A DNA stretch of 64,000 bases from an uncultured Thermoanaerobaculia bacterium (lineage in GTDB: Bacteria; Acidobacteriota; Thermoanaerobaculia; Multivoradales; CAZRFU01), in contig CAZRFU010000016.1 of the NCBI GenBank assembly GCA_964599475.1, forward strand, positions 17,619 through 81,618. Reading direction: 5' to 3'. How positions within the stretch are numbered: the stretch's first letter is position 1; each line of letters starts with the position of its first letter. Below the pieces are notes generated by a model, which was not told the origin of the DNA, did not search any database, and saw only the letters and a program-made list of their open reading frames with translations. Below, in pieces: positions 1-58,832 of the stretch. A program made the translations under genes and the position numbers.

Positions 1-1498
1 TGCGCGCGAGGTCCTCGAGGAGGGTGTCTCACGGATTGATCGAGCACTCGGCGATCAGCCCGCGGTGGCTGCCGACCTCTACGACGCCCTGGCCGAGATT
101 TACCAGCGCCTTGGCCTGGGAGCTCAGGGCCTCGATCTCGCCCAACGTGCCTTGGCGCTGCGCGAGCGAGAGCTCGCACCCGACCCGGCCAAGATCGGGG
201 AAACGCTGACCCGGATTGCCGCGCTCCAACTCGAGGGCCCGGAGCCGGCGCAGGCCCTTGCAGGTGCACACCGTGCGTGGTCGTTGCTGAGTCGCGAGCT
301 GGGCGAGGACAGTCTCGAGGCAGCACGCGCGGAAAGTGAGCTCGCTGCGGCCCTGATCTGGGCGGACCGCGCCGAGGAGAGCGTGGCCCATCACCAACAC
401 GCCTTCGACGTGCTCAGTGCCCTCCTGGGCCCCGACGATCCTCGCACCGCCGCACAGCTGGTGGCTTTGGCTCGTGCCCTCGAACAAGCGGGCCGGTACG
501 AGGACTCGATCGCTGCATTTCGGCAGGCCCTGCCGGCGCTCGAAGGAGCCCTCGGCGACCTCCACCCGGATGTCTCCTACGCGCGCCGGGATCTCGCCGG
601 GGTGCTCGATCGGGTCGGACGGCCCGCCGAAGCCGAGCCGCTGCTCGAGGCGGCGTTGGCGGCGCAACGCAAGGTGCTCGGGAACGACCACTGGCAAGTC
701 GGCGAAACTCTCTTCTCCTACGGCATTCTGCTCAACACCGCCGGACGTTTGCAGGAGGCGGAAGCTGCCTTCCGCGAGGCGCTGGCGATCGACGGCCCCG
801 CCACCCTCGCCGCCCACTGCCTGCGCTTCCTCGGCACCAACCTGGCCGAGCAGGGGCGCCTCGACGAGGCGGTCGAGAGTCTCGAATCGGCGATAGCCGA
901 GTACCGTCGTGTCGAGGGCCTGGACTCGACCGAGGCCTGGCGTGCGGTCGCCAGCCTCGGCCACGCCCACCTGCGCGGCGGGCGGGTCGAGCTGGCCCTC
1001 GCCACCCTGCGCGAGGCGGTGGCGCGGCTGGAGGAGCTGGCCGGGCCCGAGAGCTACCAGGTACGGATGCCGCTGCGCCAGCTCGGTGAGAGCCTGCGGT
1101 GGGCCGGCGAGCTCGAGCAGGCGGTTGCGGTGTTGCGCCGCACCCGCGCCCTCGAGGTCACCCTCTTCGGCACCGAGGACCATGGCGACATCGCCCTGAC
1201 CGATCTCCAGCTCGCGCGAACGCTGTTCGCCGTCGGGACCAAACCCGCACGCGAGGAGGCAAGCGCCCTGTTCGACGAAGCGATCGAGCTGCTGCGGCGC
1301 CACAAGACTCGCAGTGCCAGTCTCGGCGAGGCCCTGCTGGAGCGCGAGCGGCTCAGGCTCGCGCTGGGTGCCCCGGCGATCCGAGCCAACCTCGCCGAAG
1401 CCGTCGAGCGGCTGATGAGTGCCTACGACGCCGACGACCCCCGCACCCGCGAAGCTCGGGCCCTCCTTTCCGGCTCCGACCCGACCGCCAATCCCTGA
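1..1498 (+). CDS. TPR-repeat protein, 5'-partial (reading frame open to window start). Likely the C-terminal sensor domain of a third Ser/Thr-kinase paralog of the 6974 and 10109 genes
   Basis: ORF 65..1498 translation is all TPR_12-like repeats (AxxLxxLAxxyxxxGRxxEA) and resembles the tails of kinases at 6974 and 10109; frame is open back to nt 2. Confidence 0.6.
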   Translation, partial: AREVLEEGVSRIDRALGDQPAVAADLYDALAEIYQRLGLGAQGLDLAQRALALRERELAPDPAKIGETLTRIAALQLEGPEPAQALAGAHRAWSLLSRELGEDSLEAARAESELAAALIWADRAEESVAHHQHAFDVLSALLGPDDPRTAAQLVALARALEQAGRYEDSIAAFRQALPALEGALGDLHPDVSYARRDLAGVLDRVGRPAEAEPLLEAALAAQRKVLGNDHWQVGETLFSYGILLNTAGRLQEAEAAFREALAIDGPATLAAHCLRFLGTNLAEQGRLDEAVESLESAIAEYRRVEGLDSTEAWRAVASLGHAHLRGGRVELALATLREAVARLEELAGPESYQVRMPLRQLGESLRWAGELEQAVAVLRRTRALEVTLFGTEDHGDIALTDLQLARTLFAVGTKPAREEASALFDEAIELLRRHKTRSASLGEALLERERLRLALGAPAIRANLAEAVERLMSAYDADDPRTREARALLSGSDPTANP

Positions 1499-1627
1499 CC
1501 CGGGCTCTTCCTCGTTCACCAGCTCCTCCCCGGAGACCTGACTGCCTTGCCGGCGGCCGGCGCCCCACCGAACAGCGTGGCCCGCTGCCAGCGAGATTGT
1601 CGATCTGGGTTCTGAAAGGAGCTTCAG

Positions 1628-3157
1628 ATGGTCTCCGAACGAGCACCACGTCACCTCGCGCGTCACCTCGCGGGCGCATTGACGATTTTCGCCGCCGGCA
1701 GTGTCTCAGCCCAGGAGATCGGCGTCGACGACTTTCGCATCAGCGCCATGGGAGGCAGCGGAGATAGTGCCTACACGGCGATCTACTCGTCGGTTGCCCA
1801 CAACCCCCTCGCCGAGGAGTACCTGGTGGTGTGGCTCGGCGACACCAACACCGGCGACGGCGACAACCACTACCAGATCTTCGGGCAGCGTATCGACGTC
1901 GCGACCGGTGCCGAGCTCGGAACCGACGACTTCGTGATCGCAAGCCTCGGCGGCCCCTTCGGATCGGCGCCGTTCGCCTGGGTGACGGTGGCTCACGGCT
2001 CCGGCCAGAACGAGTACCTGGTCGTGTGGTCGACGATCACCGGGCTCGGCAACGGCAGCGACTACGAGATCTTCTGTCGTCGCGTCGCCGCCGACGGCAC
2101 ACCCCTCGGCGTCGCGCTCCAGATCAGCCACATGCACAACCCGACCCAGCCGCAGAACGAGAGCCAGTACACCGCCACCGAGCCCGCCGTCGCCTACAAC
2201 CCGCTCGCGGACGAGTTCCTGGTGGTGTGGGCGGGCGACCATGGTGTCGGCGGACTGGTCGACGAGGAAGTCGAGATCTTCGGGCAGCGCATCAGTGCCA
2301 CGACCGGCCTCGAGATCGGCACCGACGACGTGCGCATCAGCGACGTCGGAGGCACCGGCAGTACCTTCTCGGATGCCCGCTCGCCCGACGTCACCTACAA
2401 CTCGATCGACGACGAGTACCTGGTGGTGTGGGCCGCCGACGATCCCGATGCGGGCACGGCCGACAACGAGCTCGAGATCTACGGGCAGCGCCTGACCTCG
2501 CTCGGCGGCGAGATCGGCGTCAACGACTTCCGCGTCACCACCCATGGCCCCGCCAACGAGCCGGGCTACTCCGCGCTCGAGCCCGCGGTCGCCTTCAGCC
2601 CGGATCACTCCGAGTACCTGGTGGTGTTCAGCGCACCCGAAGCCTGGTCGCAGGCGGTCGGACCCGGCTTCGAGATCTACGCCCAGCGTCTCGACGCGAG
2701 CGCAAGCGCACTCGGCGGCGCCTTCAGGCTGAGCGATGTCGGCGGCCTGGCGGAGCTCGCTTTCGACGCCGACACCCCCGATGTCGCCTATGCCCCGGCT
2801 TCGGAGCGCTGGATCGTCGTCTTCCGAGCCGACGACAACGTCGGCGGGCAAGTCGACGGCGAGCGCGAGGTCCACCTGCAGGAGGTCGATGCGGCAACCG
2901 GCGCCGAGGTCGGCGACAACGACGCCCGCGTCAGCGACATGGGCCCCACCGGCAGCACGATCTACCAGACCTCACTGCCCACCGTCGCTTGCGCCGCTGC
3001 GACCGAGTGCCTGGTGATCTGGCGCGGCGACGACAACGTCGGCGGCCTGGTCAACGACGAATTCGAAATCTTCGGCCAACGCTGGGCAACCACACTGCCG
3101 GCCTCGATCTTCGAGGACGGGTTCGAAAGTGGCGACACCTCGGCGTGGAGCCTGTAG
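1628..3157 (+). CDS. secreted repeat protein, seven tandem ~58-aa repeats (motif YNPLxxEYLVVW.GD...EIFGQRI), signal peptide, C-terminal DGFESGDTSAWSL tag
   Basis: ATG at 1628 preceded by AAAGGAG; N-terminus MVSERAPRHLARHLAGALTIFAAGSVSAQE looks like a Sec signal; repeated E[YF]LVVW / EIFGQR motifs in the translation; ends FEDGFESGDTSAWSL*. Confidence 0.7.
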   Translation: MVSERAPRHLARHLAGALTIFAAGSVSAQEIGVDDFRISAMGGSGDSAYTAIYSSVAHNPLAEEYLVVWLGDTNTGDGDNHYQIFGQRIDVATGAELGTDDFVIASLGGPFGSAPFAWVTVAHGSGQNEYLVVWSTITGLGNGSDYEIFCRRVAADGTPLGVALQISHMHNPTQPQNESQYTATEPAVAYNPLADEFLVVWAGDHGVGGLVDEEVEIFGQRISATTGLEIGTDDVRISDVGGTGSTFSDARSPDVTYNSIDDEYLVVWAADDPDAGTADNELEIYGQRLTSLGGEIGVNDFRVTTHGPANEPGYSALEPAVAFSPDHSEYLVVFSAPEAWSQAVGPGFEIYAQRLDASASALGGAFRLSDVGGLAELAFDADTPDVAYAPASERWIVVFRADDNVGGQVDGEREVHLQEVDAATGAEVGDNDARVSDMGPTGSTIYQTSLPTVACAAATECLVIWRGDDNVGGLVNDEFEIFGQRWATTLPASIFEDGFESGDTSAWSL

Positions 3158-3254
3158 CTCGGCGACGCTGGGTTCCGCGGCGTGTTGCTCGACCCGCGTG
3201 CAGCGCCATGGTCGGCGCAATGACGCCGCGCTGGGCAACCGGCCTGCGGCCCAC

Positions 3255-4789
3255 TCACGGCACGGTGTTCGACCACGCCCAGGTGTTGCCAGTCTCGAAA
3301 CCGTCGGCAAAGAACCACGGGCAGCCGCCCGCGGTGTGCTCGACCGAGCCCATGTCGTTGGTGCCGTTGCCCTGTGGCCGCAACACGCCACGCTGATCCA
3401 TGAAGGTATTGCCGCCCGCGAGAGGGATCCCAGCGTCGATCGCCGGGCTGCTCGGGCTGAGATTGTGGCTGCGGGTGAGCTCCTCGGGGATCCCGACCGG
3501 GCAGGAAAAGCCGAGGGGCAGGATCTGGGCGTCGGTCTCGGGTTTGTTGCCGTTGGTCGCAAGCTCGCCACAGCTGATCCCAGACCACAGGCTCGCGCCG
3601 ATGTCCACTGCGGCGCCGCCTGCGATCGAGCACTGGTCGCCGCTGTCCGTTGCGCTGTTCAGAGCCCAGATCACGTTGCGGGCGTGCAACGTCGAGCCGA
3701 TCGCCCCGGTCGTGACGCCACCGCCAACGGCGGCCTGATTGTTGGCGATCGTGGTCATCCGCAAGGTCAAGGCGCCTTCGTTGTGGATACCACCACCCGA
3801 GCCGGCGCTGGTGTTGCCGGAGACCGTCGTGTTCTCGAGCTGGAGGGTCCCGAGATTGGCGACGGCGCCACCTCTCGCGGCGGGATCGCTCGCGACGTTG
3901 CCCGAGAAGGTGGACTCGCGCTGGAGCGACGATGACCCCGCTGTGATGAAGAAGCCCCCTCCCTCGGCGGCAGCATTGTCGGCGACCGTATCCCGGCTGA
4001 GTGAAACGCCGGAGGCGTTCTGCAGCAACACGGCGCCGCCCTGGCCGGCCGCCACGTTGAGCACGAACGAGCTCAGATCCAGAAAGCCCGAGGCGCTCGT
4101 GGCACGAACCGCACCGCCATCGCCACCGGCGGTGTTGTTGTCGAACGAGGATCCAAACACCGCGAGCTGGGTCGTGTTGGCGACATCGAGCGCGCCGCCA
4201 TGGCCAACTGCGGTGTTGTTGGTAAGGATGGTGCGGCTCAGGTCCACCCGCCCGCCGATGGCGGCGATGGCTCCGCCGTCGCCGTTGGCGTGGTTGCCGG
4301 CAAGAGTGCTCCACAGAGCGTGGACCACGCCACCACTCGCGAGCACGGCGCCGCCACTCCCGGTGGAGGTGTTGTTGGCCAGGATGGCTCGGTCGAGCTC
4401 GAGGTCACCACCGGGCTCCACCACCCCGCTCCACCGCCCGCTGCAACGCCGTCGACGAGGAAGATCTCTCGCATCGTGGCGACCGCCGCAGCGGCGACCA
4501 CGAAGTGCCGCGTCGTGCCGCCACCCGACAGTGTCACCTTGTTGTCCCCATCGAAAACCACGAAGGCCGTGATCGGCTTGGCGGCGGTCAGGGTGATCAC
4601 GATCGGGTCGGGGCCACAGTCGAAGGTGATCGTGCCACCGCCGGCGTGCGCCGTCGCGATCGCGGCATCAAGGTGGGACTCGGTGCATCCTCCAGGCGAG
4701 CCGTCGCCGACGACGGCGTTGGCGCCGAGGACCGGAGGGACGGCGAGCAGCAAGCAGAGGGTGAGGCAAGGGAAGTCGCGAGGTTTCAT
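3255..4789 (-). CDS. Pmp-repeat (GGA[IVL]) right-handed parallel beta-helix secreted protein with CSLREA-like N-terminal motif and C-terminal DGFETGNTWAWS tag; reading frame broken near 4420-4432 (G-run), so possibly a pseudogene or sequencing error
   Basis: ORF 4238..4789 (signal peptide MKPRDFPCLTLCLLLAVPPVLGANA, motif GCTESHLDAAIATAHAGGGTITFDCG) and ORF 3255..4424 (NNTxxGxGGA repeats, tag FADGFETGNTWAWSNTVP*) align collinearly to the paralog at 4786..6309. The two frames join if one G is added to the GGGG run. Confidence 0.6.
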
Positions 4790-6309
4790 GGCGTAGTCGA
4801 GCTCCAGGAGTTGGTGTTGCCGAGATCAAAGTCGTCGGCGAAGAGGGCGAAACAGTCGCCGGCCTGGTACTCGACCGCCCCAACGTCACAGCCAAGGCCC
4901 TGGGGCCGCGGGACGCCACGCTGGTCGACCTGCGGGGCCAGGGCACAGGAGGCCGCGTCGATCGCCGGGCTCGTTGCCTCGATCGCGTGGGTAGGGGTTC
5001 GTTCGGTTGCCAGTCCAGTGCAGGTCCTCGCCAGGGCGGCGATCCCAGGATTGGTGTTGGGTTGGTTGCCGCTGCTCGTGCCGGTACCGCAGGTCGTGTC
5101 GGACCAGATGCTGAAACTCAGCCCGAGCGGCGCGGCGCCGAAGTTGCACTGCGAGTCGACAAGGCCGTTGTTGGATCGGTTTGCAACCAAGAGGCTGTTG
5201 TGGATCTCGAGCAGGCCGGCAGGCAAGTTGTCGATCCCGGCGCCGGGGTCGCGTGTGACGTTGCCGACGATCGTGCTGTTGACCACCATGGCGGTGCCAC
5301 TGTTGCTGAGGCCACCGCCCCCCAACGCCCAGTTGCCGGAAATGGTCGCGTTCTGCAGGGCCAGCGTACCGAGATTTTCGATACCGCCGCCGATCACCGC
5401 GCTGTTGCGCGACACCGTTGTCGATATCACCACGACCTGCGATGGCGTGTTGACTCCGAGTCCACCGGCGAGACCGGCCGAGTTGTTGGCATCGAGCCAG
5501 GAGTCGGTGATCGTGACGTCGCTGCCATCCCACACGTAGAGCCCACCCGCCTCAGCCGCGTCGTTGCCCCGGATCAGCACGCGGGTGAACTGGGTGAAGA
5601 ACGCGCCGCGCAGGGCGACTCCTCCGCCGGCGCCGCCGGCCGTATTCCCCTCGATCCGGCTGTCGATCACACCGACATTCGAAAACCACGCTTCGACGGC
5701 GCCCCCATCGGTTCCGGCGCCGTTGCCGGTCATCGTGCTCGATTGCACCACGAGGCCGCCGGGATAGAGGTTGATGCCACCTCCTCCTCCGACAGCCTCG
5801 TTGTCGCGGACATGGCTGTCGACGAGGGAAACGAAGAGATGGTTGCCGGCGATCGCACCGCCCCAGGAGGCGGAGATGTTGTCCTCGAGGGTCACCCCCT
5901 CGAGATGCAGTTGCACCGCAAGGTCGAGGGACGGGGCGGGAGCCCAGATCGAACCGCCGGGTGAGGCGCTCCCGAGCGTCAGGGTGAGATTGCGCAGCGT
6001 CACCTCGCTGTCGTCGAGAAGGCGAAAGTGCCGCGTGGCAAGGCCTCCGGAAAGGGCGATCAGATTGCCACCATCGATCGTGACCTGGTCGCCGAGGACC
6101 TTTTCGCTGGTGAGCACGATGGCGTGGGGAGCCGGCCCACAGTCGAAGGTGATCAGGCCGCCTCCGGCGTTGGCGGAGGCCACCGCCGCCGTCAAGGCCG
6201 CCTCGGTACAACTTGCAGACGATCCGTCGCCCACCACGGCGTCGGCGCCGTAGGTCGGCGCGACCAAGGCCACGGCGGCGGGAAGTACGAGCTGATGAAC
6301 CAGGCGCAT
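4786..6309 (-). CDS. Pmp-repeat parallel beta-helix secreted protein (paralog of 3255..4789), CSLREA-like N-terminus, C-terminal DDFDLGNTNSWS tag
   Basis: Start taken at internal ATG 6309 (MRLVHQLVLPAAVALVAPTYGADA signal peptide, AGGAGG RBS upstream) rather than ORF start 6369; GGG[AG][IVL] repeats; stop TGA overlaps ATG of the downstream gene (ATGA at 4786-4789). Confidence 0.75.
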   Translation of the reverse strand: MRLVHQLVLPAAVALVAPTYGADAVVGDGSSASCTEAALTAAVASANAGGGLITFDCGPAPHAIVLTSEKVLGDQVTIDGGNLIALSGGLATRHFRLLDDSEVTLRNLTLTLGSASPGGSIWAPAPSLDLAVQLHLEGVTLEDNISASWGGAIAGNHLFVSLVDSHVRDNEAVGGGGGINLYPGGLVVQSSTMTGNGAGTDGGAVEAWFSNVGVIDSRIEGNTAGGAGGGVALRGAFFTQFTRVLIRGNDAAEAGGLYVWDGSDVTITDSWLDANNSAGLAGGLGVNTPSQVVVISTTVSRNSAVIGGGIENLGTLALQNATISGNWALGGGGLSNSGTAMVVNSTIVGNVTRDPGAGIDNLPAGLLEIHNSLLVANRSNNGLVDSQCNFGAAPLGLSFSIWSDTTCGTGTSSGNQPNTNPGIAALARTCTGLATERTPTHAIEATSPAIDAASCALAPQVDQRGVPRPQGLGCDVGAVEYQAGDCFALFADDFDLGNTNSWSSTTP

Positions 6310-6392
6310 TGGGTTTCCTCCTCGAGCTGCTATTGGCTCGAACGGGAAATCGAGGGAGAAAGCGGACATGGCGCCCCTGCTAACATCTCCGC

Positions 6393-6968
6393 GTGTCAGC
6401 TCCCATCCCGGCCGGCGACCTCACCGCCCTGATCGAGGCTTGGGATGGCGGCGCGGGGGTGCCGGTCGACGAGCTGTGGCAGGCTGCCTATGCCGAGCTC
6501 AAAGCGCTTGCACGCTCGCGACTGCGGCGCCAGGGACCCGTGACACTGCTCGACACCACCGCTCTGGTCAACGAGAGCTACCTGCGGCTGGTGGGCGTCG
6601 GCCGCCTCCAGGTCGAGACTCGCGGCAAGTTCTTCGCCTACGCCTCGCGCGTGATGCGGTCGGTAGTCGTCGACCTCGCGCGCGAACGACTCACGACACG
6701 GCGTGGTGGCGGTGCCGAGGCGGTCACCTTCGACACGGACGCCGTCGACCGCCTGCAGTTCCCGGCGCTGGCCGAGCCGCTCGATGTCGATGCGGTGCTC
6801 GCGGAGCTGGAGGTGGTCGACCCGCGACTCGCGAAGGTCGTCGAGATGCGCTATTTCGCGGGCTACACCGAGGTCGAGATCGCGACGATCCTCGGCCTCA
6901 CCGAACGCACGGTACGCCGCGACTGGCACAAGGCGAAGCTGCTGCTGCGCACGATGATCGTTCGCTGA
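6393..6968 (+). CDS. ECF-type RNA polymerase sigma factor, kinase-associated subgroup (TIGR02999/ECF43-like)
   Basis: GTG start; sigma-2 region LVNESYLRL and sigma-4 region YTEVEIATILGLTERTVRRDWHKAKLLL; immediately followed by a Ser/Thr kinase gene. Confidence 0.8.
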   Translation: MSAPIPAGDLTALIEAWDGGAGVPVDELWQAAYAELKALARSRLRRQGPVTLLDTTALVNESYLRLVGVGRLQVETRGKFFAYASRVMRSVVVDLARERLTTRRGGGAEAVTFDTDAVDRLQFPALAEPLDVDAVLAELEVVDPRLAKVVEMRYFAGYTEVEIATILGLTERTVRRDWHKAKLLLRTMIVR

Positions 6969-6973
6969 GGCCC

Positions 6974-9334
6974 ATGAACCGCCTACCATGCTCACCCGGC
7001 CAATGGCCCGAGCTCTCGCGGCTACTCGACGAGGCGCTCGAAAGTCATCAGCAGGATCGAGGAATATGGCTCGAGCGCGTCGGCCGAGAGCGGCCGGACC
7101 TCATCGAGGCCCTGCGAACGGTGCTCGAGGCCGAGGTAGGCGAGCAGGCCGATGCCGCCCAATTCGAGTCCCCGTCCTGGGATCTCCTCGATGACGAGGA
7201 TGCTCTTGGCCAGGGAACCGTCGTCGGGCCCTACACGCTCGAAGCCGAGTTGGGAGTGGGCGGGATGGGGACCGTCTGGAGCGCCCACCGCAGCGACGGC
7301 GCGTACCAACGCCGGGTTGCACTCAAGCTGCCCCACCTCTGCGGGCCGGGGGCGGATCTCCGGGCTCGGTTTCGGCGCGAGCGGGACATCCTCGCCCGGC
7401 TGTCGCATCCCAACATCGCGCAGTTTCTCGACGCCGGCGTTGCTGCCGACGGGCGCCCGTATCTTGCACTCGAGTTGGTCGAGGGGCGGTCGATTCTCGA
7501 GGCTGCTGGGTGCGCTCGGCTCAGCGTCGACGGGCGCTTGCGGTGGTTCCGGGCGGTGCTCGACGCCGTCGCCTACGCCCATGCCAGGCTCGTGGTCCAC
7601 CGCGACATCAAGCCCTCCAACGTCCTGGTCGGCGCCGCCGGCTCCGTCAAGCTGCTCGACTTCGGGATCGCCAAGCTGCTCGAGCCGACCGCCTCCGAGC
7701 GCGGCGGCGCCGCGCAGCTCACCCGCGCGGACGTCAGACCAGCGACTCCCGACTACGCCGCTCCCGAGCAGCTCGACGGCGGTGATGTGACCGTGGCGAC
7801 CGACGTGTGGGCGCTCGGTGCGCTGCTGTTCGAGTTGCTGACCGGTGGCCGACCTTTCTCCCGCGCCGAGCGTCTGAGTAGCCAACGCGACCGCTTCGTA
7901 CCGTTCTCCTCGCGCCGCGTCGACCCGACGCACGCTCGGGCGTGCGGCTTGTCGACGAAATCCCTCGCCAGGCGACTCGAAGGCGATCTCGACGCGATCC
8001 TCGCCAAAGCTCTCGCTTTCGAGCCGACCGATCGGTACGCCTCGGTCGAGGCATTCGCCGGCGACCTCGACCGCCACCTTGCTCTCCAGCCGATCGTCGC
8101 GCGGCGGCCGAGCGCATTGGTGCGGGCGCGCCTGTTCGCGCGCCGTCACCGAGTCGGACTGGTGTCGTTCGGCCTCCTCCTCGCGTCGGTGACCGCAGGC
8201 ATGCTCGGGGTACTGCTGCAGGCCCGGGCGACCTCGGCGGCCGCCCGGCGCGCCGAAGCGACCAAGGACTTCCTCGTCGAGGTCTTCAAAGGCAGCGACC
8301 CGCGGGTTGCGCGCACCAAGCCCCGCGGCGAGATCACCGCTCGAGAGCTGCTCGACATCGCGGCTCACGATCTCGAAGTCGGGTTCGAGGATGATCCCGA
8401 GACCCGGATCGAGCTGTTGGGGCTGACCGCCACGATCTACACCTACCTCGACGAGATCGGTGCCGCACGGAGGCTGGCCGAGATGGGACGGCTCGAGGGG
8501 CAGCGCCTGCTCGAGGCCGACGATCCTCGCCTGCTCGACCCTTGGCTTCTCGAGATCTGGCTTGCCCTCGAGGCCGGGGACCTCGAGTCCGCGCGGACAC
8601 GGCTCACCGAGGTCGACCGACACCTTACGGTCTACGGGCTCGATCACACGGTCCACCGCGCCGGTTACCACCTGGCCGCCAGCGACATCGCTGCGGCGCA
8701 GGGCGATCGAGACGGCCGGAAGCAAGAGCTCGAGCAGGCCCGGGCTCTTTATGCTGCGGTGGCTCCACGCGACTCAGGGCATGCCGCAGCGCTGTCGAAT
8801 CTCGGCCTGTTGCGTCTGGGGGGTGGTGAACCCACGGAGGCTCTGACCCTGCTCGACCGCGCCCTGACGGTGGCCCAGACTGCCACCAGCGATGTGGGTA
8901 CCGACCTCGCCCGGATTCACGCTCGTCGAGGCCGGGTGTTGCTGGAGCTCGCGCGCTTCGAGGACGCCCGGGAAGCGCTCGACACGGCTCTGGCGCTGTA
9001 CGCCGCGACGGTCGGCACAGACCATGTGACCACCTGGGCCCCGCGCGCCGCCCGTGCCCGAGCGGCAGCCTACCTCGGCCAAGCCATCGACGCCGACCGC
9101 GACCTCGGTTCTCTCGAAAGCCTCCCGGGCTGGCAGGAACCGCGTTTCTCGCGCTACCGTCAGGAGGCCAACTTGCACCGCGGCCTGGCTTTGGCCAGAC
9201 TCGGTCGGCAGCCACAGGCTGCGGCGATTCTCGCCGAGAGCGTCGCAAGCCTGGGCGACGATCCCGAGCTCGAAGCCGAGATCCGCTGGGCTCGGCTCGA
9301 GATCGCAAGCACCCGGTCCGACGCAGGTGGATGA
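6974..9334 (+). CDS. Ser/Thr protein kinase (PknB-like) with one TM helix and extracytoplasmic TPR sensor domain
   Basis: ATG 6974 is 5 nt after the sigma stop; GxGxxG (ELGVGGMGTVW), VALK, HRDIKPSNVLV, DFG, APE motifs; TM LVSFGLLLASVTAGMLGVLL; TPR repeats to the C-terminus. The supplied ORF 6368..9334 is an artefactual extension through the sigma gene. Confidence 0.85.
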   Translation: MNRLPCSPGQWPELSRLLDEALESHQQDRGIWLERVGRERPDLIEALRTVLEAEVGEQADAAQFESPSWDLLDDEDALGQGTVVGPYTLEAELGVGGMGTVWSAHRSDGAYQRRVALKLPHLCGPGADLRARFRRERDILARLSHPNIAQFLDAGVAADGRPYLALELVEGRSILEAAGCARLSVDGRLRWFRAVLDAVAYAHARLVVHRDIKPSNVLVGAAGSVKLLDFGIAKLLEPTASERGGAAQLTRADVRPATPDYAAPEQLDGGDVTVATDVWALGALLFELLTGGRPFSRAERLSSQRDRFVPFSSRRVDPTHARACGLSTKSLARRLEGDLDAILAKALAFEPTDRYASVEAFAGDLDRHLALQPIVARRPSALVRARLFARRHRVGLVSFGLLLASVTAGMLGVLLQARATSAAARRAEATKDFLVEVFKGSDPRVARTKPRGEITARELLDIAAHDLEVGFEDDPETRIELLGLTATIYTYLDEIGAARRLAEMGRLEGQRLLEADDPRLLDPWLLEIWLALEAGDLESARTRLTEVDRHLTVYGLDHTVHRAGYHLAASDIAAAQGDRDGRKQELEQARALYAAVAPRDSGHAAALSNLGLLRLGGGEPTEALTLLDRALTVAQTATSDVGTDLARIHARRGRVLLELARFEDAREALDTALALYAATVGTDHVTTWAPRAARARAAAYLGQAIDADRDLGSLESLPGWQEPRFSRYRQEANLHRGLALARLGRQPQAAAILAESVASLGDDPELEAEIRWARLEIASTRSDAGG

Positions 9335-9451
9335 CCGGAGCCGTCCCTCGACGTTCCCCGGTCCGGCGCCCCGCTGACGGCAGTCACCGAGACGCGTCTG
9401 GGAATGCCGCGCCCTGATACCGACCGCGCGGAGTCCTCTTCGAGCCGGGTG

Positions 9452-10057
9452 TCAGCCTGGGCGTGGTTCGAATCCGGTCAGCTCGAGATGCAACATCGCG
9501 CGAGCGGCCCGCCAGTCGCGCTTGACCGTCCGCAGCGAGACCGCTGTCGCATCGGCGATCTCCCCAAAGGTCAGCCCGCCGAAGAAGTGCCACTCGACCG
9601 TTTGGGCCAAGCGCGGGGCTGCGAGCTCCAGACGAGACAGGGCAGCATCCAGCGCCAAGAGATCTTCGATCGGGGCCGACGTGCCCGGCGCTGCGACGGC
9701 GATGGCGTCGAGGTCGATCTCAGGCTGACCACCACCACGTTTGCCTGCCTGGCGCCCGCGCGCGCGGTCGACCACCACGTGGCGCATCGCGCGCGAAGCC
9801 ACTGCGAACAGGTGTTGACGATCTTCGAATGGTAGCGCCCCTCGGCGCGACAGCCGCAGGAACACTTCGTGCACGAGCGAGGTGGCGGACGGCCCCGCAA
9901 CTTGGGCCCGCAGGTGGCGACCCGCCAAGGCCCGGAGGTCGGCGTAGATCAGATCGAACACCTTGCCTGCAGCATCGCGGTCGCCGCCGCGAGCGGCTGC
10001 CAGGAGCGCGGTCACGGCGCCCTGGTCGCCTTCGGGGGAATCGCCGGCCGCACCCAT
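9452..10057 (-). CDS. ECF-type sigma factor (second copy, same kinase-associated subgroup)
   Basis: C-terminal 201 aa of ORF 9452..11290(-): VHEVFLRL, LTFGEIADATAVSLRTVKRDWRAARAML; ATG at 10055-10057. The remainder of that ORF is antisense to the kinase gene. Confidence 0.75.
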   Translation of the reverse strand: MGAAGDSPEGDQGAVTALLAAARGGDRDAAGKVFDLIYADLRALAGRHLRAQVAGPSATSLVHEVFLRLSRRGALPFEDRQHLFAVASRAMRHVVVDRARGRQAGKRGGGQPEIDLDAIAVAAPGTSAPIEDLLALDAALSRLELAAPRLAQTVEWHFFGGLTFGEIADATAVSLRTVKRDWRAARAMLHLELTGFEPRPG

Positions 10058-10108
10058 TCCGAAGATTCTAGCGCCGCGTCCGACATCTCCTGTAGCGTTG
10101 CCGCACCG

Positions 10109-13072
10109 ATGGCCACCTCCCGGCAGGAAGAGCGAGCGCGCTGGTTCGTCGAGCTGTGCGACCTCGAGCTGCGGGAGCGTGACCGGGCTCTCGAGGAGAT
10201 CGCCGCGAGCGATCCCCAGCTGGCGGCCGAGGTCGAAAGGCTGCTCCGCCTCGATCGGCAATCGAACGGGCCGATCGAAGCCCTGCGCGAGGAACTTGGA
10301 CCGGCCCTGCACTCGGCGTTTTCCGAACTGGAGGTGGCAGACCTTGCGCCGCCGGAACGGCTCGGCCCGTGGCGCCTGGGCGAAAGACTCGGTGCGGGCG
10401 GCATGGGCGAGGTCTGGGCCGCCGAACGCGCCGATGCCGGCTTTGCCCAGCGCGCTGCCATCAAGCTGGTCCGCTCGAACATGGCGAGCGAGGAGGTGGT
10501 GCGCCGCTTCGCCATCGAACGCCGGGCTCTCGCACGGCTCGAACATCCCGGCATCGCCCGGCTGCTCGACGGCGGTGTCGCTCCCGATGGTCGCCCGTGG
10601 TTCGCCATGGAGCGGGTCGACGGCATCGCGATCACGACCTTCGCCGACACCAACGCACTCGACCTCGGGTCGCGATTGCGACTCTTCCTCGCCGTCATCG
10701 AGTCCGTCGCCTTTGCTCACCAGGCGCTGGTGGTCCATCGCGACCTCAAGCCCTCGAACATCCTGGTGACCGCGGCCGGCGCGCCCAAAGTCCTGGACTT
10801 CGGCCTGGCCAAGCTGCTCGACCCGGCGGAAGGCAACCAGGACCAGCCGGAGCTCACGCACACCAACCTGCTGGCGCTGACCCCGGCTTACGCCGCTCCA
10901 GAGCAATTCCTCGGCGAGCCGACCACCACCGCAACCGACGTCTACGCCCTGGGCGCGGTTCTGTTCGAGCTCCTCACCGGGCAATTGCCGCACCAGCGGC
11001 GAAGCCCTTCGCTCGCCGTGCTGCTCGAAGGGCTCGAGCGCGAGACCCTCGAGCGCCCTTCTCAGCGCCTCAGGCGTTCGGCTGCCAGCGAACGCCCGGA
11101 TCGAGCCGCCAGGCTGCTCGAGGGAGACATCGACACCATCGTGCTGCAGGCTCTCGCCCGCGAACCGGCCCGCCGCTACCCAACCGTGGCGGCGCTCGGC
11201 GCGGACATCCGCGCCCACCTCGAAGGGCGGCCGATCGCGGCACGGCCGGCCTCGGCCTTCTACCTCTTCTCCAAGTTCCTCGGGCGGCACCGAGCGGCGG
11301 CGATCGCTGCGCTGACCGTGGTGTCGGCCCTGAGCGTCAGCCTGATCGTCTCGTTGCAGCAGACTGCGGTCGCTCGCGCCGCCCTCGCCACGGCACAGAG
11401 CGAGGCCCGGCGCGCCGAGAGGGTCAAGGACTTCCTAGTGTCCGTGTTCGAACAGGCCGACCCAACCCACACCCAAGGAGCCGACGTGCCGGCGCGACAG
11501 ATCCTCGCCGAGGGCGCGGCCCAGCTGAGGACCAACCTCGCCGACGAGCCCGAGGTCCGCGCCGAGCTCTACGACACCGTCGCGCAGATCCAGACCAGCC
11601 TGGGATTGCTCGAAGAGGGGCTGGCCAACGCCGAAGCCGGCGCCGCAGAGCGCAAGCGGCAGTTCGGTGACAGCTCGCGCGAGTACGCCCGCAGCCGGGT
11701 GACGGTGGGCCGGGCCAAGCTGCAGCAGGCCCAGTTCGCTGGCGCGCTGGAGGACTTCGACCATGCCCTATCGGTGTTCGAAGCCAGGGTGGATACCCGC
11801 TCGCTCGACTTCGCGAAGGCACTCTCCGGTCGGGCCGAGGCCCGTCTGATGCTTGGCGACCCGGAGCAGGCGCGCACCGATCAGCTCGCCGCCAATGCGA
11901 TCTATGCCGCGGCCCTCGGGCCTGAGGATCGGGAAACCCTCGGCCAGCTCTCGAATCTCGCCGTGATCGAAACCCGGTCCGGAACCGTCCTCGAGGCCGC
12001 GCGGATCTTCCGCCAGGTGCTGGCCGGCCTCGAACGCGTCGAGCCCCCGGACTCGGCACGTGTGCTCGATGTCGTCCTCAATCTCGCCACCGCCCTCGAC
12101 ACCGCCGGCCAGAGCACAGAGGCCTTGGCGCTGTTCGAACGCGTCGTCGCCGGTCGCCGGAGGATCTACGGGGACCAACACCCCCTGCTTGCCGAAGCGC
12201 TGGTGATCGCCGGGCTCAGGATGTCGCGAGCCGGCCGTGGCGACGACGCACTTCGAGCGCTCGACGAGGCCCGCGCGATCTACGCACCGCTCGATCACCC
12301 GGAGCTCGGTACCGTCGACAACTTCAGCGGCCTGACCTACGCCGACCTGGGGCGGTTCGCCGAAGCCGAGGCGGCGTTCGCGGCAGCGTCGGCTCGGTTC
12401 TCACGGGACCTCGGCCCCGCGCACGTGATGACGGTTTCCGCCAACGCCAATCGGGCCAACGTGGTGAGTGAGCTCGGTCGCGAGGACGAGGCAGTCGAGC
12501 TGTTCGCCGAGGCGGTCGCCCAGCTGCGTGTGCTCCAGCAGCTCGACAACCCGAGGCTGTTGCGCATGCGACTGAACTGGGGAGCGGCGCTGCGCCGCGC
12601 CGGACGCTTTGCCGAAGCGCGGTCGGTGCTGGAAGCCGCGATGGCGGCCGCGCGCGAGCAGTTCGGAGGCGACCATCTGCGCATTGCCGAGGGCTCGGTC
12701 GAGCTCGCCCGCCTCGAGCTGGCTGCGAGAACGTCCACCGCTCCCGAGGTCGCTGCCTCACTGCTCGCCGAGGCGGAGCGGATCGCCGAGAACAACCCGC
12801 CCAACGCCGCCTTGGCCCGCAATCTGGCGGCAGCGAGGGCGGAACTGCGGGAGGCAAACGGTTCCTCGGCACCCATCACGGCCCCGACCACCCTGCCATC
12901 GACCCCGCTCGAACCCGTCCGAGAAGATCAGGCCATTGTCGAGGCTGGGGGACGGGCTCTACCATCTCCTGGCGTGCGGCGCGATCGAGGTGGAGATCAG
13001 CTCCGGCTCGGTGTCCGCGGTAGACGTCTTCGCCGACCGGCTGCGATTCGAGCTGCTGGATCTGCTGCGTGA
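10109..13072 (+). CDS. Ser/Thr protein kinase with TM helix and long extracytoplasmic TPR domain. The 3' end is uncertain: a G5 run at about 12945 separates it from a tag-encoding frame
   Basis: ATG 10109 (MATSRQEERARWFVELCDLELRER...); ELGAGGMGEVW, AIK, HRDLKPSNILV, DFG, APE; TM AAAIAALTVVSALSVSLIVSL; TPR repeats; divergent from sigma gene 9452..10057. Confidence 0.8.
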   Translation: MATSRQEERARWFVELCDLELRERDRALEEIAASDPQLAAEVERLLRLDRQSNGPIEALREELGPALHSAFSELEVADLAPPERLGPWRLGERLGAGGMGEVWAAERADAGFAQRAAIKLVRSNMASEEVVRRFAIERRALARLEHPGIARLLDGGVAPDGRPWFAMERVDGIAITTFADTNALDLGSRLRLFLAVIESVAFAHQALVVHRDLKPSNILVTAAGAPKVLDFGLAKLLDPAEGNQDQPELTHTNLLALTPAYAAPEQFLGEPTTTATDVYALGAVLFELLTGQLPHQRRSPSLAVLLEGLERETLERPSQRLRRSAASERPDRAARLLEGDIDTIVLQALAREPARRYPTVAALGADIRAHLEGRPIAARPASAFYLFSKFLGRHRAAAIAALTVVSALSVSLIVSLQQTAVARAALATAQSEARRAERVKDFLVSVFEQADPTHTQGADVPARQILAEGAAQLRTNLADEPEVRAELYDTVAQIQTSLGLLEEGLANAEAGAAERKRQFGDSSREYARSRVTVGRAKLQQAQFAGALEDFDHALSVFEARVDTRSLDFAKALSGRAEARLMLGDPEQARTDQLAANAIYAAALGPEDRETLGQLSNLAVIETRSGTVLEAARIFRQVLAGLERVEPPDSARVLDVVLNLATALDTAGQSTEALALFERVVAGRRRIYGDQHPLLAEALVIAGLRMSRAGRGDDALRALDEARAIYAPLDHPELGTVDNFSGLTYADLGRFAEAEAAFAAASARFSRDLGPAHVMTVSANANRANVVSELGREDEAVELFAEAVAQLRVLQQLDNPRLLRMRLNWGAALRRAGRFAEARSVLEAAMAAAREQFGGDHLRIAEGSVELARLELAARTSTAPEVAASLLAEAERIAENNPPNAALARNLAAARAELREANGSSAPITAPTTLPSTPLEPVREDQAIVEAGGRALPSPGVRRDRGGDQLRLGVRGRRLRRPAAIRAAGSAA

Positions 13073-13121
13073 CGGCTTCGAAAGTGGCGACACCAGCGCA
13101 TGGTCGCTCGCGGTGCCGTAG
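12930..13121 (+). other. orphan coding segment in the kinase +1 frame ending ...DVFADRLRFELLDLLRDGFESGDTSAWSLAVP* (fourth copy of the C-terminal tag)
   Basis: 18-nt identity (ttcgaaagtggcgacacc) with the tag-coding end of the 1628..3157 gene; reads cleanly only downstream of the G5 run. Confidence 0.45.
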
Positions 13122-13256
13122 CCGCGGCCATCCGGCCTGCGGGCTATCATCTGCTCGCGGTGACCGAGATGCCGAGCGCGGACTCGCCATTCGCAACGGT
13201 CGCGGCGCAGGCCGAGAGCAGAGAAGCCGACGAAGGCCCGGCGGGTTCAGCCGAGT

Positions 13257-13856
13257 TTGGGGTGCGGCTGGAGGATTCTCGTGGAAGAGTGGTGGTATTC
13301 ATGGATCGCACTGCCCGGGCTGATCTTCCTTGCCCGTACCACTGATGTCGGCCTGTCGACCCTGCGTATCCTGTTCATCGGCCAGGGCCGTCGCGGTCTG
13401 GCTGCCGCCACCGGGTTCTTCGAGGCGATCATCTGGCTGACGGTGGTGTCGCAGACCTTCAAGCACCTCGACAACCCGCTGGCGATCATCGCGTACGGCG
13501 GAGGCTTCGCCATGGGCAACGTCGTGGGGATGATGCTCGAAGGCAAGCTTCGACTGGGAGTCCAGGTCGCCCGGATCATCGGCGCCCGGGATCCGACGCT
13601 GTTGCAGGATTCGCTGAGGGCCCTCGACATCGGCTTCACCAGACTCGAGGGTCACGGCGCTCAGGGGCCCGTCTGGGTACTGTTTACGGTCGTGCGTCGG
13701 CGCGACGTGGCACGCCTGCTCGAGGCCGTCGAACGCGTCGCTCCCCAGGCCTTCGTGTCGATCGAGGACGTCCGACGGGTCGACCACGGTGTTTTCCCGC
13801 ACCCACCGATAGCGACCGAATGGCCGGGCTGGCGGCTGCTACGCAAGGCGCGCTGA
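13257..13856 (+). CDS. UPF0316/DUF2179-like small membrane protein (start uncertain)
   Basis: N-terminal TM segments followed by MLEGKLRLGVQVARIIG..FTRLEGHG, the general pattern of the YebE/DUF2179 family; recalled from memory, not searched. Confidence 0.45.
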   Translation: MGCGWRILVEEWWYSWIALPGLIFLARTTDVGLSTLRILFIGQGRRGLAAATGFFEAIIWLTVVSQTFKHLDNPLAIIAYGGGFAMGNVVGMMLEGKLRLGVQVARIIGARDPTLLQDSLRALDIGFTRLEGHGAQGPVWVLFTVVRRRDVARLLEAVERVAPQAFVSIEDVRRVDHGVFPHPPIATEWPGWRLLRKAR

Positions 13857-13901
13857 ACTTCCGTGCTATTATTTGAAGGAGTTTCTCGAAGGAGAGGTCC
13901 C

Positions 13902-14369
13902 ATGTCGAAGATGTTCAGCTGGAGTCTCCTGGTGCTGATCGCGTCCGCCGCGAGCGCCGGCACCTTCACCGTGACCCTGCACAACGGCAACAGCTTCGAG
14001 AGCCGCTACCAGCCCAAGGCTGCCAGCTGGGATGACAACGTCATCCTGGTGCTCGACGAGCTCGGCAACTGGGTTGGGCTCGAGCGCGCCGACGTCAAGT
14101 CGGTGATCTCCGACATCGAGGCTCGCGGCTACGGCATCGTCATCGACACGACGACCAAGGAGTTCGGCTTCGCCCCGAACGACGCCGCGCTCCCCGACGA
14201 AGAAGGTGGCGCACAGCCGCAGCAGGCGCCGTCGGCCCTCGACCGCATCCTCGGGCAGACCTACGACACGCCGCAGTTCGTCGAGCCCGGCTCGAGTGGT
14301 GGCGGGTTCCCGGTCTTCAGCGTCGGAACCAGCGGCAGCGCGGCCACTCAGCCGCAGGGCCCTCGCTGA
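13902..14369 (+). CDS. hypothetical secreted protein
   Basis: ATG 13902 after GAAGGAGAGG; signal peptide MSKMFSWSLLVLIASAASAGT; low-complexity C-terminus. Confidence 0.55.
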   Translation: MSKMFSWSLLVLIASAASAGTFTVTLHNGNSFESRYQPKAASWDDNVILVLDELGNWVGLERADVKSVISDIEARGYGIVIDTTTKEFGFAPNDAALPDEEGGAQPQQAPSALDRILGQTYDTPQFVEPGSSGGGFPVFSVGTSGSAATQPQGPR

Positions 14370-14378
14370 TCTCGGGCC

Positions 14379-15131
14379 GTGGCGCGGCTGATCCGTGACG
14401 GCGGCGGCTACGCCGTCCTCGAACGCGGCGCCGCGCTGCGCTTGAAGAGCAATCCCTTCGAGGTTCCGCGGCACGCCTGGGAGCTGGGCTCCCCCTGCGA
14501 GCCCGGCACGGCGCAGGTACCGGTGCACCCACGGACGGTCTTGGGCATCGGTCGCAGCTACCGCGCCCACGCCGAAGAGCTCGGCAACCAGGCTCCCGAG
14601 TCTCCGCTACTCTTCCTCAAGGCACCGAGCTCGCTGCTCGACCCCGGTGCCCCGCTTGCGATCCCCACCAGCTGCGGCCGGATCGACTTCGAGGGTGAGA
14701 TCGCGCTGGTGCTGGCATCGCGGCTGGATCGAGTACCAGCAGACGAGACCCTGTCGAAGGTGCTCGGAGTCACCGCTGCGTGCGACACCACCGCGCGCGA
14801 GATCCAGCAGGGTGACCGCACCTTCGCCCGTGGCAAGTCGCTGGTCTCGAGTTGCCCGATCGGCCCGGTGATCGATCTCGATCCCGACTGGGGAAACCTC
14901 GAGGTCGTCACGCGGATCAACGGCGTCGAGCGTCAGCGTGGACACGAGCGGATGTTGCTGTGGCCGATCGCGGAGATTCTCGCCTACGTGTCGAACTGGA
15001 TCGTGCTCGAAGCCGGGGACGTGATCCTCCTCGGCACCCCTGCAGGCGTTGCGCCCTTGAGCCCCGGCGACCGGTTGGAGGTCGAGGTCAGCGGCGTCGG
15101 GGTGTTGCACAACCCTGTCGTAGCGCGCTGA
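14379..15131 (+). CDS. fumarylacetoacetate hydrolase (FAH) family protein
   Basis: GTG start; FAH-fold motifs (LLFLKAPSSL, RIDFEGEIALVL, GDVILLGTPAGV). Confidence 0.8.
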   Translation: MARLIRDGGGYAVLERGAALRLKSNPFEVPRHAWELGSPCEPGTAQVPVHPRTVLGIGRSYRAHAEELGNQAPESPLLFLKAPSSLLDPGAPLAIPTSCGRIDFEGEIALVLASRLDRVPADETLSKVLGVTAACDTTAREIQQGDRTFARGKSLVSSCPIGPVIDLDPDWGNLEVVTRINGVERQRGHERMLLWPIAEILAYVSNWIVLEAGDVILLGTPAGVAPLSPGDRLEVEVSGVGVLHNPVVAR

Positions 15132-15592
15132 TGGGGCCTCGGCGTCTCAGGCAGGTCATCGCCCTGATCGTGGCGCTGGCTGCCGCGGTGATCGGCCTCG
15201 AGGGCCGCGGATACCCCTGGTCACTGGCCGCGATCTTGGGTGCTGCCTGCGGAGCGTTCGTCTGGGTCTTGCTCGAGCGGATCGGCGAGATCGCGGCGAT
15301 GTTCGGCGATCACCACCCGCCACGGGAAGACGAGGACCGCCGCCAACAGCGCGAGATGGATCCACCCGCCGAAGACCATTCCGGCGCCGAGGGATACCAA
15401 CCAGGTCGAGAACAAGCCGAAGGTGAGGGCCAGCCGCAAGAGCTCGGGGCGCATGATGCACAGTCTAACCCCGAGGAGCCACTTCGCCGTGCGACGCTGG
15501 ATACTGACACCCCCGAGGTGCTGTTCGACCACCCGCTGATGCGAGCCGAACGGCGTCGGCTGCCGGCACCGGACGAGGAGCAGCACCGCTGA
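15131..15592 (+). CDS. small membrane protein (2 TM) with acidic low-complexity tail
   Basis: ATG overlaps the FAH stop (TGATG) and its own stop overlaps the crcB ATG (TGATG), forming a translationally coupled chain. An alternative minus-strand ORF 15221..15586 was judged less likely. Confidence 0.45.
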   Translation: MGPRRLRQVIALIVALAAAVIGLEGRGYPWSLAAILGAACGAFVWVLLERIGEIAAMFGDHHPPREDEDRRQQREMDPPAEDHSGAEGYQPGREQAEGEGQPQELGAHDAQSNPEEPLRRATLDTDTPEVLFDHPLMRAERRRLPAPDEEQHR

Positions 15593-15987
15593 TGCTACGC
15601 CTCGCCGTCGCCGTCGCCGCCGGCGGGGCCCTCGGCGCCCTGCTGCGCTGGGGTGTCGGTCTGGCGGGCCTCGAGCTCGCGCGTCGGCTCCCGGAGCCGG
15701 CGCGCTGGTGGCCTCTCGGCACCCTGGCAGCCAACGCCCTCGGCTGTTTTGCCATCGGCCTGCTCGTCGGGATCTTCGAACACCGCTGGGCAGCCCCGAG
15801 CGGGTGGCGAGCCTTTCTGGTGGTCGGGCTCCTCGGCGGATTCACCACCTTTTCGAGCTACGCTCTCGAGGCGGTGCAGATGGTCCAAGACGGCCGGGCC
15901 CGCGAAGCCCTCGGCTACGTGCTGGTTTCAACCGTCGGCGGGGTGCTGCTGGTCGCCGCCGGCTGGACCCTCGGCCGAGCGACGTGA
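15592..15987 (+). CDS. crcB: fluoride ion channel CrcB/FluC
   Basis: 131 aa, 4 TM, motifs GTLAANALGCFAIG and GLLGGFTTFSSYALE typical of CrcB. Confidence 0.85.
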   Translation: MLRLAVAVAAGGALGALLRWGVGLAGLELARRLPEPARWWPLGTLAANALGCFAIGLLVGIFEHRWAAPSGWRAFLVVGLLGGFTTFSSYALEAVQMVQDGRAREALGYVLVSTVGGVLLVAAGWTLGRAT

Positions 15988-16005
15988 GCAGTTGCCTACG
16001 CACCC

Positions 16006-16068
16006 TGCACCCCGGCCGTGCACCCCGGCCGATGAAAATCCGGTCTTCAGTACCCGGTACCTGGTACC
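16006..16068. repeat. partial MITE-family copy (reverse orientation): tandem 13-bp direct repeat TGCACCCCGGCCG x2 + GATGAAAATCCGGTCTTCAGTACCCGGTACCTGGTACCC
   Basis: Reverse complement matches the left arm and adjacent core of element B. Confidence 0.45.
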
Positions 16069-58800: not shown

Positions 58801-58832
58801 ACCGTCCGCGCGCGATCCACCGGCCCCACGGC

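Follow-up and report, generated by a model that had tools for sequence, protein, structure and literature searches.

Kinase 2 is a Ser/Thr kinase encoded in a stretch of 64,000 nucleotides (G+C = 68%), referred to below as the window, of contig CAZRFU010000016.1 from an uncultured Thermoanaerobaculia bacterium. Behind the 3' end of its gene, in a different reading frame, lies a tail (12951-13121) that ends in a short peptide motif, the tag, of which the window holds four copies, each 2-5 residues from a stop; the other three belong to genes g1, g2 and g3. The tail is genuine protein-coding DNA with a bona fide tag end, and it is most likely untranslated now, whether with the kinase or otherwise. 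On the reading favored here, which is given about an even chance, it is the relic, frameshifted not long ago, of a kinase extension that was once in frame. The event itself would then be ordinary: a lineage-specific C-terminal extension has gone out of frame and is eroding differently in sister strains. One practical consequence is that an annotation of kinase 2 should not describe it as tagged.

The architecture of kinase 2 is that of the Ser/Thr kinase-TPR proteins associated with PF07638 sigma factors. Its Pfam matches are to Pkinase and TPR_12/TPR_10 (the TPR part being C-terminal), a transmembrane (TM) scan gives a single clear helix (residues 396-414, Kyte-Doolittle score 2.36), and a divergent gene for a PF07638 extracytoplasmic function (ECF) sigma factor is adjacent. 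Because there is one TM helix, the TPR part and anything fused behind it are predicted to be periplasmic or extracytoplasmic; a reading made from the sequence only had called a tag on this protein topologically sensible because its TPR domain lies beyond a TM helix, and the prediction bears this out. The stretch shared with orthologs is 10109..12868, DNA and protein homology stopping at about 12868, and this kinase and TPR body is intact and probably functional. The open reading frame (ORF) in the kinase frame, 9869/10109..13072, runs on to a TGA at 13070-13072 and a C-terminus that reads ...EDQAIVEAGGRALPSPGVRRDRGGDQLRLGVRGRRLRRPAAIRAAGSAA. The NCBI product P0161 (1067 residues; 81,989-bp contig) is kinase 2 in this frame, and its annotation calls for caution, in that everything past the run of five G residues (12950-13069) is read-through junk. 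At the other end, the P0161 start (GTG 9869) lies 80 codons upstream of ATG 10109 and overlaps the divergent sigma gene, 9452-10060(-); the true start is most plausibly ATG 10109, and the annotated N-terminus is probably too long. Exact-sequence look-ups of kinase 2 (from the ATG start), g1 and P0161 matched no record.

Coding signal changes frame behind the kinase body. With a codon log-odds table made from ten long ORFs in the window, the P/T-rich linker that follows the body (12869-12946) has a positive score only when read with the kinase (+12.7 bits); the tag frame gives -24.3 and the third frame -17.3. For the tail (12951-13118) the order is reversed, with +48.2 bits when read in the tag frame, -39.8 when read in that of the kinase, and +41.6 in the tag frame for its pre-tag part (12951-13069) by itself. 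The G+C content of third codon positions (GC3) changes in parallel: in the kinase frame it is 0.84 up to 12937 and then 0.38 (12953-13069), while the tag frame over these same positions has 0.87. The kinase-frame read-through, 12950..13072, is non-coding by composition, and its earlier description as Arg-rich junk was apt. The maximum-likelihood switch point (12942-12950) overlaps the G5 run and lies inside a 143-nt segment that is specific to the window. Runs of five or more G or C residues number 80 in these 64 kb (68 of five, seven of six and five of seven; composition predicts 187), and a switch interval of ~10 nt would therefore meet one by chance with a probability of ~2%. In the +1 frame no stop occurs from 12609 until the TAG at 13119-13121, and the translation that leads up to this TAG is ...SRLGDGLYHLLACGAIEVEISSGSVSAVDVFADRLRFELLDLLRDGFESGDTSAWSLAVP. 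Removal of one G from the run (12947-12951) joins the two frames (...AIVEAGDGLYHLL...SLAVP, then stop) into a product of 1003 residues; the junction DNA is GAGGCTGGGGGACGGGCTC in the G5 form of the window and GAGGCTGGGGACGGGCTC in the G4 form, and the junction-spanning peptide of the repaired product is AIVEAGDGLYHLLACGAIEVEISSGSVSAVDVFADR. The sequence-only reading had placed a fourth, out-of-frame copy of the tag behind G5 at the 3' end of kinase 2 and had joined the frames by removing one G, and it was correct in both respects. Most simply, the frame switch would reflect a single ancestral ORF that gained or lost 1 nt at the G run. The tail is also overlapped by a minus-strand ORF (12876-13196), which was rejected as a gene: its composition is that of junk, and its codon score is +22.5 against +48.

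Sister strains have the same locus with different damage. The 90% cluster of P0161 has one further member, P0281 (1073 residues), from contig L008 of the Logan assembly of SRR26088202, and contigs L008-L011, which come from four SRA runs, are 99.3-99.7% identical to the window over the kinase. All four of these sister contigs, which reach the kinase end, lack the 143 nt at 12928-13070, and L008 has no homolog of this segment. (The linker, up to 12927, is common to the sister strains.) At the junction, GAGAAGA is followed directly by GACGGCTTC, which leaves the tag +2 relative to the kinase; in that frame it reads DGFESGDTNAWSLAV with a last residue L or P before the stop (the plus-strand version in L008 being DGFESGDTNAWSLAVL and stop), and upstream of the L008 tag there is only junk in the tag's own frame. 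Two substitutions have entered the 51-nt sister tag, S>N in 4/4 contigs and P>L in 3/4 (L010 keeps ...VP at the end, the others have ...VL). Both are non-synonymous in the tag frame, and P>L falls on the conserved terminal proline. Read in the phase of the tag, the 143-nt segment has the marks of good coding sequence, and it is for this reason more likely to be ancestral, the sister allele being a deletion derivative.

A second difference lies just downstream of the tag, where the sister strains have 1888 nt more than the window. This DNA encodes a convergent tagged beta-helix protein of 522 residues with the end ...EIFSDGFESGSHGAWSSATGS. The stop of its gene is 15 nt from the plus-strand tag stop, and the window diverges from L008 inside that stop codon; there is no microhomology at the breakpoints (13138/13139). 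An identical DUF5698/DUF2179 neighbor protein is found on 13 contigs from at least nine SRA runs, and the eight of these contigs that were displayed all have the sister-type breakpoint at 13138/13139; the window allele is seen only in the NCBI contig. When JGI metagenomes were scanned for exact matches to the junction with a run of G4 to G6, none came up. The sister kinase ORF is also without a proper stop: it runs through the out-of-frame tag for 54 junk codons (L008 5283-5445; P0281 is the resulting 1073-residue product) and shares 97 nt with the convergent gene. Divergence between window and sister strain is uneven, 0.72% from kinase 1 to kinase 2 (7646-12927) and 0.14% downstream (13139-16047), and the window and another sister contig, L019, differ by 1.3% from g2 to kinase 2. 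Such unevenness points to either recombination or relaxed constraint within the island.

The course of events that would account for these alleles begins in an ancestor of the species-level lineage, in which kinase 2 would have gained the P/T-rich linker, an orphan segment of ~40 residues and the tag. These were probably captured with the 3' end of one of the tagged genes, which are abundant and rearranging nearby. The fusion of kinase, tail and tag would have stayed in frame for some time, a stage that we infer. In the strain of the window, insertion of one G (G4 to G5 at 12947-12951) would then have put the tail out of frame and given the kinase its 41 terminal junk residues; this history presupposes that G5 is what the genome really has. 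In the sister strains, the 143-nt deletion would have removed the pre-tag part and left an orphan tag, out of frame and starting to mutate.

Elsewhere, homologous kinases have no such tail. A search with the repaired kinase as query recovered P0161 and yielded 6659 homologs at E<=1e-30, the named ones coming from metagenome-assembled genomes (MAGs) of Thermoanaerobaculia (Acidobacteriota), and the tag motif occurs nowhere in the best 120 of them (0/120). The contiguous kinase-TPR-tag ORF that the sequence-only reading had proposed to look for in orthologs is thus missing from this set, and the implied view that the kinase is normally tagged finds no support beyond the present lineage. Orthologs at 57-63% identity (920-935 residues) stop ~5-20 residues past ...(R)NLAAA.AEL, a point that corresponds to ~12868-12880 in the window; their natural C-terminal tails vary, are A/S/P-rich and reach 17 residues. 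The linker (12869..12946) is absent from orthologs at ~60% identity. In L001/L002, DNA homology also ends at ~12868-12880, with TrmO 25 nt further on, and in L017/L018 the kinase ends ...AELAQHR and is followed by a hydrolase gene; the kinases of L007, L017 and L001/L002 have C-termini without a tag. From these sequences, the tagged tail is not a feature of the kinase family. Nor was a source for it found. Linker and tail together (a 101-residue query) have no match at E<=10 among 5.8 billion proteins, no homolog of the pre-tag segment was found in the fetched loci or proteins or by a peptide-pattern scan of JGI metagenomes, and a scan of genome contigs with TPR and tail as query gave only distant TPR proteins among the matches listed. 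The tail might have been the final, diverged repeat of a protein like g1 (the YLVVW...EIFGQR unit), but this idea was discarded, since a hidden Markov model of six such units scores the 41 pre-tag residues at -1.1 bits, a value that 640/2000 shuffles equal or exceed.

It is in the light of these tagless kinases that another origin of the tail has to be weighed, namely that it was never part of the kinase and is the 3' end of a separate tagged gene downstream. A deletion would have removed the kinase stop and most of that gene, which would have been convergent with the sister beta-helix gene and would have ended ...GDGLYHLLACGAIEVE...DGFESGDTSAWSLAVP; the change of frame would simply be the deletion junction. 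Several large indels separate close strains at this locus, tagged genes cluster around such kinases, the orthologs have no extension, and, ortholog tails being variable and A/S/P-rich, the linker could be the kinase's own tail. Such a scar is nevertheless improbable, because its junction would have to land by chance on the G5 run (the ~2% coincidence above), because the first ~20 nt of the 143-nt segment (seven codons) score as coding in the kinase frame (+7.9 vs -3.7 bits), which is easier to explain by a continuous ORF with a 1-nt indel, and because the searches found neither a donor gene nor a pre-tag homolog.

The tag of the tail, LLRDGFESGDTSAWSLAVP, fits the consensus [IL]F.DGFE.G(D/N)...WSxxVP at all conserved positions and is atypical only in its hydrophobic-F-x lead-in (LLR). 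Its stop comes five codons past the W in the tag frame, a spacing common to most of the 112 C-terminal matches described below. In its own frame it has neither a start nor a signal peptide, and its topology comes right only after repair. The tail and the 3' end of g1 (1628..3157) have the 18-nt string TTCGAAAGTGGCGACACC in common, the 18/18 identity having been reported before, and BLAST extends this to 23/24 nt. A BLAST of the tail within the window gives no match beyond this 24-nt tag core in g1, so that the tail was rejected as a recent duplicate of a window segment, and synonymous and Ser-codon-family differences show that neither tag was recently copied from the other. (The g1 tag itself, at 3146-3157, ends three residues short, ...AWSL before the stop compared with the consensus ...AWSxxVP; its homolog P0141 is complete.)

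A frame without a start of its own bears on another possibility, that the tail is expressed as an independent small gene, from TTG 12936 or GTG 12990, to give a tagged peptide of 61 or 43 residues. Both codons lie in the tag frame, within its open stretch (from 12609), but the peptide would have no signal peptide, unlike most full-length tag carriers inspected, no convincing ribosome-binding site is present in the sequence, the codons of 12927-12947 score poorly in the tag frame, no small-protein homolog was found, and the stretch is deleted in sister strains; a small gene is hardly credible. No promoter or terminator consensus was found near the tail.

A programmed +1 frameshift, in which P-site tRNA-Gly would slip from GGG to GGG on G-GGG-GA before a rare GGA codon and some of the kinase would thereby be tagged, is extremely unlikely. 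After a +1 slip the tRNA could indeed pair again on GGG-G, no other Gly codon is as rare here as GGA (39/573), and the G-rich run is Shine-Dalgarno-like. The site is, for all that, unconserved in homologs and absent from the sister strains, has no in-frame stop, and is followed by RNA that folds no better than shuffled sequence (z = 0.00). Phase variation, in which slipped-strand mispairing in the G tract would toggle a tagged kinase end, is very unlikely. There is a homopolymer at the switch point, the product would be surface- or periplasm-exposed, and a second tagged gene in the window (g2) is also frameshifted. Tracts of contingency loci are typically of 7 or more, and G5 is far below the lengths known for them; it is also an ordinary run in this DNA (68 of five and 12 longer, vs 187 expected), the g2 lesion is not in a homopolymer, and the tract has been deleted outright in sister strains. 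The junction thus resembles contingency loci and prfB-type +1 frameshift sites in having a homopolymer at which GGG-G re-pairing is possible, and differs from them in that the tract is short, unconserved and without a stimulatory stop or RNA structure.

Whether G5 is real bears most directly on the alternative that the genome has G4 and the extra G is a sequencing or consensus error. The 1003-residue protein of kinase, TPR domain, linker, tail and tag would then be live and would display its tag in the periplasm. Arguing for an error are the kind of lesion (a +1 change in homopolymer length), the pristine state of the tail (+48 bits over 56 codons, with a consensus tag), the nature of the record, a MAG contig, in which consensus errors occur, and the second frameshift of the window, in g2. 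A same-strand frame-switch scan of the 64 kb found kinase 2 and g2 as the only two convincing cases. In g2 (3255-4789, minus strand), the signal-peptide part (4789-4448) and the remainder (4424-3255) are in different frames; 3255..4424, previously taken for the whole gene, is a frameshifted fragment. Repaired g2 has 511 residues and is collinear with g3, and it is intact at this length in sister contigs L019-L021 (three runs). Comparison with these locates the lesion at one absent A at 4426 (plus strand CCACC[A]CCGC, within CCACCACC; site 4423-4426), which is not a homopolymer miscount, and a G5>G4 change at g2 was accordingly rejected. The alignment of the window with L008 has 0 gaps over 8.2 kb, and that with L019 has three 1-nt gaps over 7.5 kb, none of them in homopolymer length. 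Throughout the 15.7 kb shared with these independent short-read assemblies there is no homopolymer-length difference, and a systematic process of homopolymer error is therefore not evident. Long ORFs elsewhere in the window are intact, and a G7 run is tolerated in an intact ORF of 919 residues. The loss of the tail in the sister strains, together with the lack of a tag on any other kinase, gives no sign of selection for a tagged kinase. In sum, an error is unlikely.

The broken g2, the missing tagged beta-helix gene and the differing gene content upstream of ~3215 together point to an island in flux. Upstream of g2, the window (1-3215) has the end of a TPR protein (65-1498) and the tagged g1 (1628-3157), and L019 (1-2819) has instead a tagged DUF5122 protein and an ankyrin-repeat protein.

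Several points weigh against the relic reading. The G5 run is known from the assembled contig sequence. The tail is undecayed in the window (57 codons free of stops, with a consensus tag), which would equally fit a sequencing error or a very recent event; strains that differ by only ~0.3-1.3% would be expected to show little decay in any case. Deletion of the G run makes the sister strains uninformative on G4 vs G5. The case for an in-frame ancestor is built on the coding scores of short stretches (26 and 7 codons) and on the overlap of the switch point with the G run. For the pre-tag segment of ~40 residues, no homolog was found in any of the collections searched (the 5.8 billion proteins, the fetched loci and proteins, and the JGI metagenomes). 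Of the three explanations that the sequence-only reading had put forward, pseudogenisation of the tagged end still fits best. It had also named two findings that would together make the downstream segment a decayed remnant, reads in support of G5 and tagless orthologous kinases; the second of these is borne out by the best 120 homologs.

A relic is also what the locus looks like when set beside known cases. Like a frameshifted pseudogene that arose by a 1-nt homopolymer indel, the tail has its coding signal in the other frame, no start codon, and the lesion at a G run; orthologs do not have the segment, and in the sister strains it is further degraded (the 143-nt deletion and the tag substitutions). 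Coding-quality sequence that no ORF can translate, absence from orthologs and independent lesions in relatives are the marks of a pseudogene remnant, and all three are found. Unlike the usual frameshifted pseudogene, only a C-terminal extension has been lost here, and the lost part bears a tag of sorting type, of a kind not otherwise known from kinases. Coordinates are collected in Table 1.

Table 1. Features of kinase 2 and its tail, the corresponding sister DNA, the other tag copies, and further parts of the window. Positions refer to the window unless L008 is named.
Feature	Position	Strand	Basis or remark
Kinase 2 body: Ser/Thr kinase domain, TM helix, extracytoplasmic TPR domain	10109..12868	+	Pfam, TM scan, homology
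Divergent PF07638 ECF sigma adjoining kinase 2	9452-10060	-	Pfam
P/T-rich C-terminal extension (linker, SSAPITAPTTLPSTPLEPVREDQAIVEA), kinase frame, lineage-specific	12869..12946	+	codon log-odds, ortholog C-termini, sister alignment
G5 run, coding signal shifts +1 here	12947..12951	+	sequence; maximum-likelihood switch point
143-nt segment: G run and pre-tag tail (GDGLYHLLACGAIEVEISSGSVSAVDVFADRLRFELLDLLR, +1 frame)	12928..13070	+	in this genome only
Arg-rich read-through of annotated kinase frame	12950..13072	+	GC3 0.38, codon log-odds -33.9
Tag copy DGFESGDTSAWSLAVP and TAG stop, +1 frame relative to kinase	13071..13121	+	consensus of 150 profile matches
Breakpoint, sister strains +1888 nt	13138..13139	.	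L008 alignment
L008 1-5282	7646-12927		99.28% identity, gapless
L008 5283-5353	13071-13141		contains tag
L008 5354-7241	absent from window		1888 nt
L008 7242-10150	13139-16047		99.86% identity
g1 tag, protein end ...DGFESGDTSAWSL, then stop	gene 1628-3157; tag 3119-3157	+	
g2 tag, protein end ...DGFETGNTWAWSNTVP, then stop	gene 3255-4424; tag 3255-3305	-	
g3 tag, protein end ...DDFDLGNTNSWSSTTP, then stop	gene 4786-6369; tag 4786-4836	-	
Type I restriction-modification piece, long ORF	54575-57709	-	by eye
IS200/RAYT-like transposase	57767-58228		by eye
REP (repetitive extragenic palindromic)-like repeats	~58100-58900 and ~60300-60700		by eye
HsdR N-terminal fragment	60208-60903	-	by eye
AAA/OLD-like ATPase	60900-62954		by eye
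HsdS-like ORF	62792-63904	-	by eye

The tag is a more interesting object than the tail, being widespread and without a Pfam or NCBIfam model. A profile built from the four window tags and searched against 1.84 billion cluster representatives matches 2409 of them at E<=1e-3. In 112/150 of the best matches, the motif lies no more than 8 residues from the C-terminus and nearly always reads [IL]F.DGFESGDTSAWSxTVP-COOH; in the remaining 38/150 it is internal and often repeated, internal copies starting repeats of ~215 residues in giant proteins with weak matches to NTTRR-F1. Most of the full-length tag carriers inspected (carriers among P0010-P0159) have a signal-peptide-like N-terminus, and several combine CSLREA_Nterm, beta-helix and choice-of-anchor-Q. 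No Pfam or NCBIfam model matched so as to cover the tag, and a full-text literature search with four tag hexapeptides returned nothing relevant. The tag is a real and widespread C-terminal motif, and apparently an undescribed one.

Comparison with known C-terminal sorting signals brings out what is peculiar to it. As in PEP-CTERM/exosortase, GlyGly-CTERM/rhombosortase, LPXTG/sortase and the C-terminal domain (CTD) of the type IX secretion system (T9SS), a short conserved motif stands at the extreme C-terminus of proteins with a signal peptide. The CSLREA/beta-helix proteins that bear the tag, behind a 'choice-of-anchor Q' domain, are relatives of rhombotarget A; rhombotarget-A-like proteins elsewhere, which have the same architecture as several tag carriers, end in recognised sorting signals. 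In the known signals, a TM helix and basic residues come after the motif, or the signal is a beta-sandwich CTD of ~80 residues. The tag, in contrast, has neither TM helix nor basic cluster, the protein stopping five residues past the W, and its motif also occurs internally. Because it has no TM helix, it is not a signal of the PEP-CTERM, GlyGly-CTERM or LPXTG type.

Tagged proteins recur beside kinases of this kind. Metagenomic contig L007 (3.2 Mb) encodes a tagged beta-helix protein and, directly after it, a PF07638 ECF sigma factor and a kinase-TPR protein, and the same module is present in the window (g3/g2, sigma 1, kinase 1) and in L019 (the module coordinates are 4786-9334 and 9452-13072 in the window, 8001-12852 in L007 and 2862-8942 in L019). 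Like other systems of a PF07638 (ECF43-like) sigma and a membrane Ser/Thr kinase-TPR protein, kinase 2 has the complete architecture and an adjacent divergent sigma gene; what sets the present modules apart is that in the window, L007 and L019 they sit among tag-bearing secreted proteins. From this recurrence, the tagged proteins may be what the sigma/kinase pairs control or sense, and a past fusion of the tag to the sensor end of such a kinase would point, if only faintly, to some connection in function between the two. A bolder proposal, judged quite unlikely, is that the fusion was or is functional and that periplasmic TPR domains recognize the free ...DGFESGDTSAWSxTVP-COOH ends of neighboring secreted proteins, by analogy with TPR recognition of peroxisomal targeting signal 1 (PTS1) and with the sensing of C-terminal peptides by DegS. 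If it held, the tag tethered in cis would be a built-in pseudo-ligand setting kinase activity, and the relic would be a 'Rosetta-stone' trace of an interaction between tag and TPR kinase.

Two other parts of the window may be mentioned. No tRNA or Rfam feature was found in it. An 81-residue ORF (13100-13345, plus strand) lies between the tail and the DUF5698/DUF2179 gene and scores +20.8 bits over 13122-13256, as coding sequence would; it could be a genuine small gene or have arisen by chance. Near the far end of the window, between 54575 and 63904, pieces of a type I restriction-modification system are interspersed with an ATPase gene, a transposase gene and repeats, all of them called by eye from translations, with no profile search.

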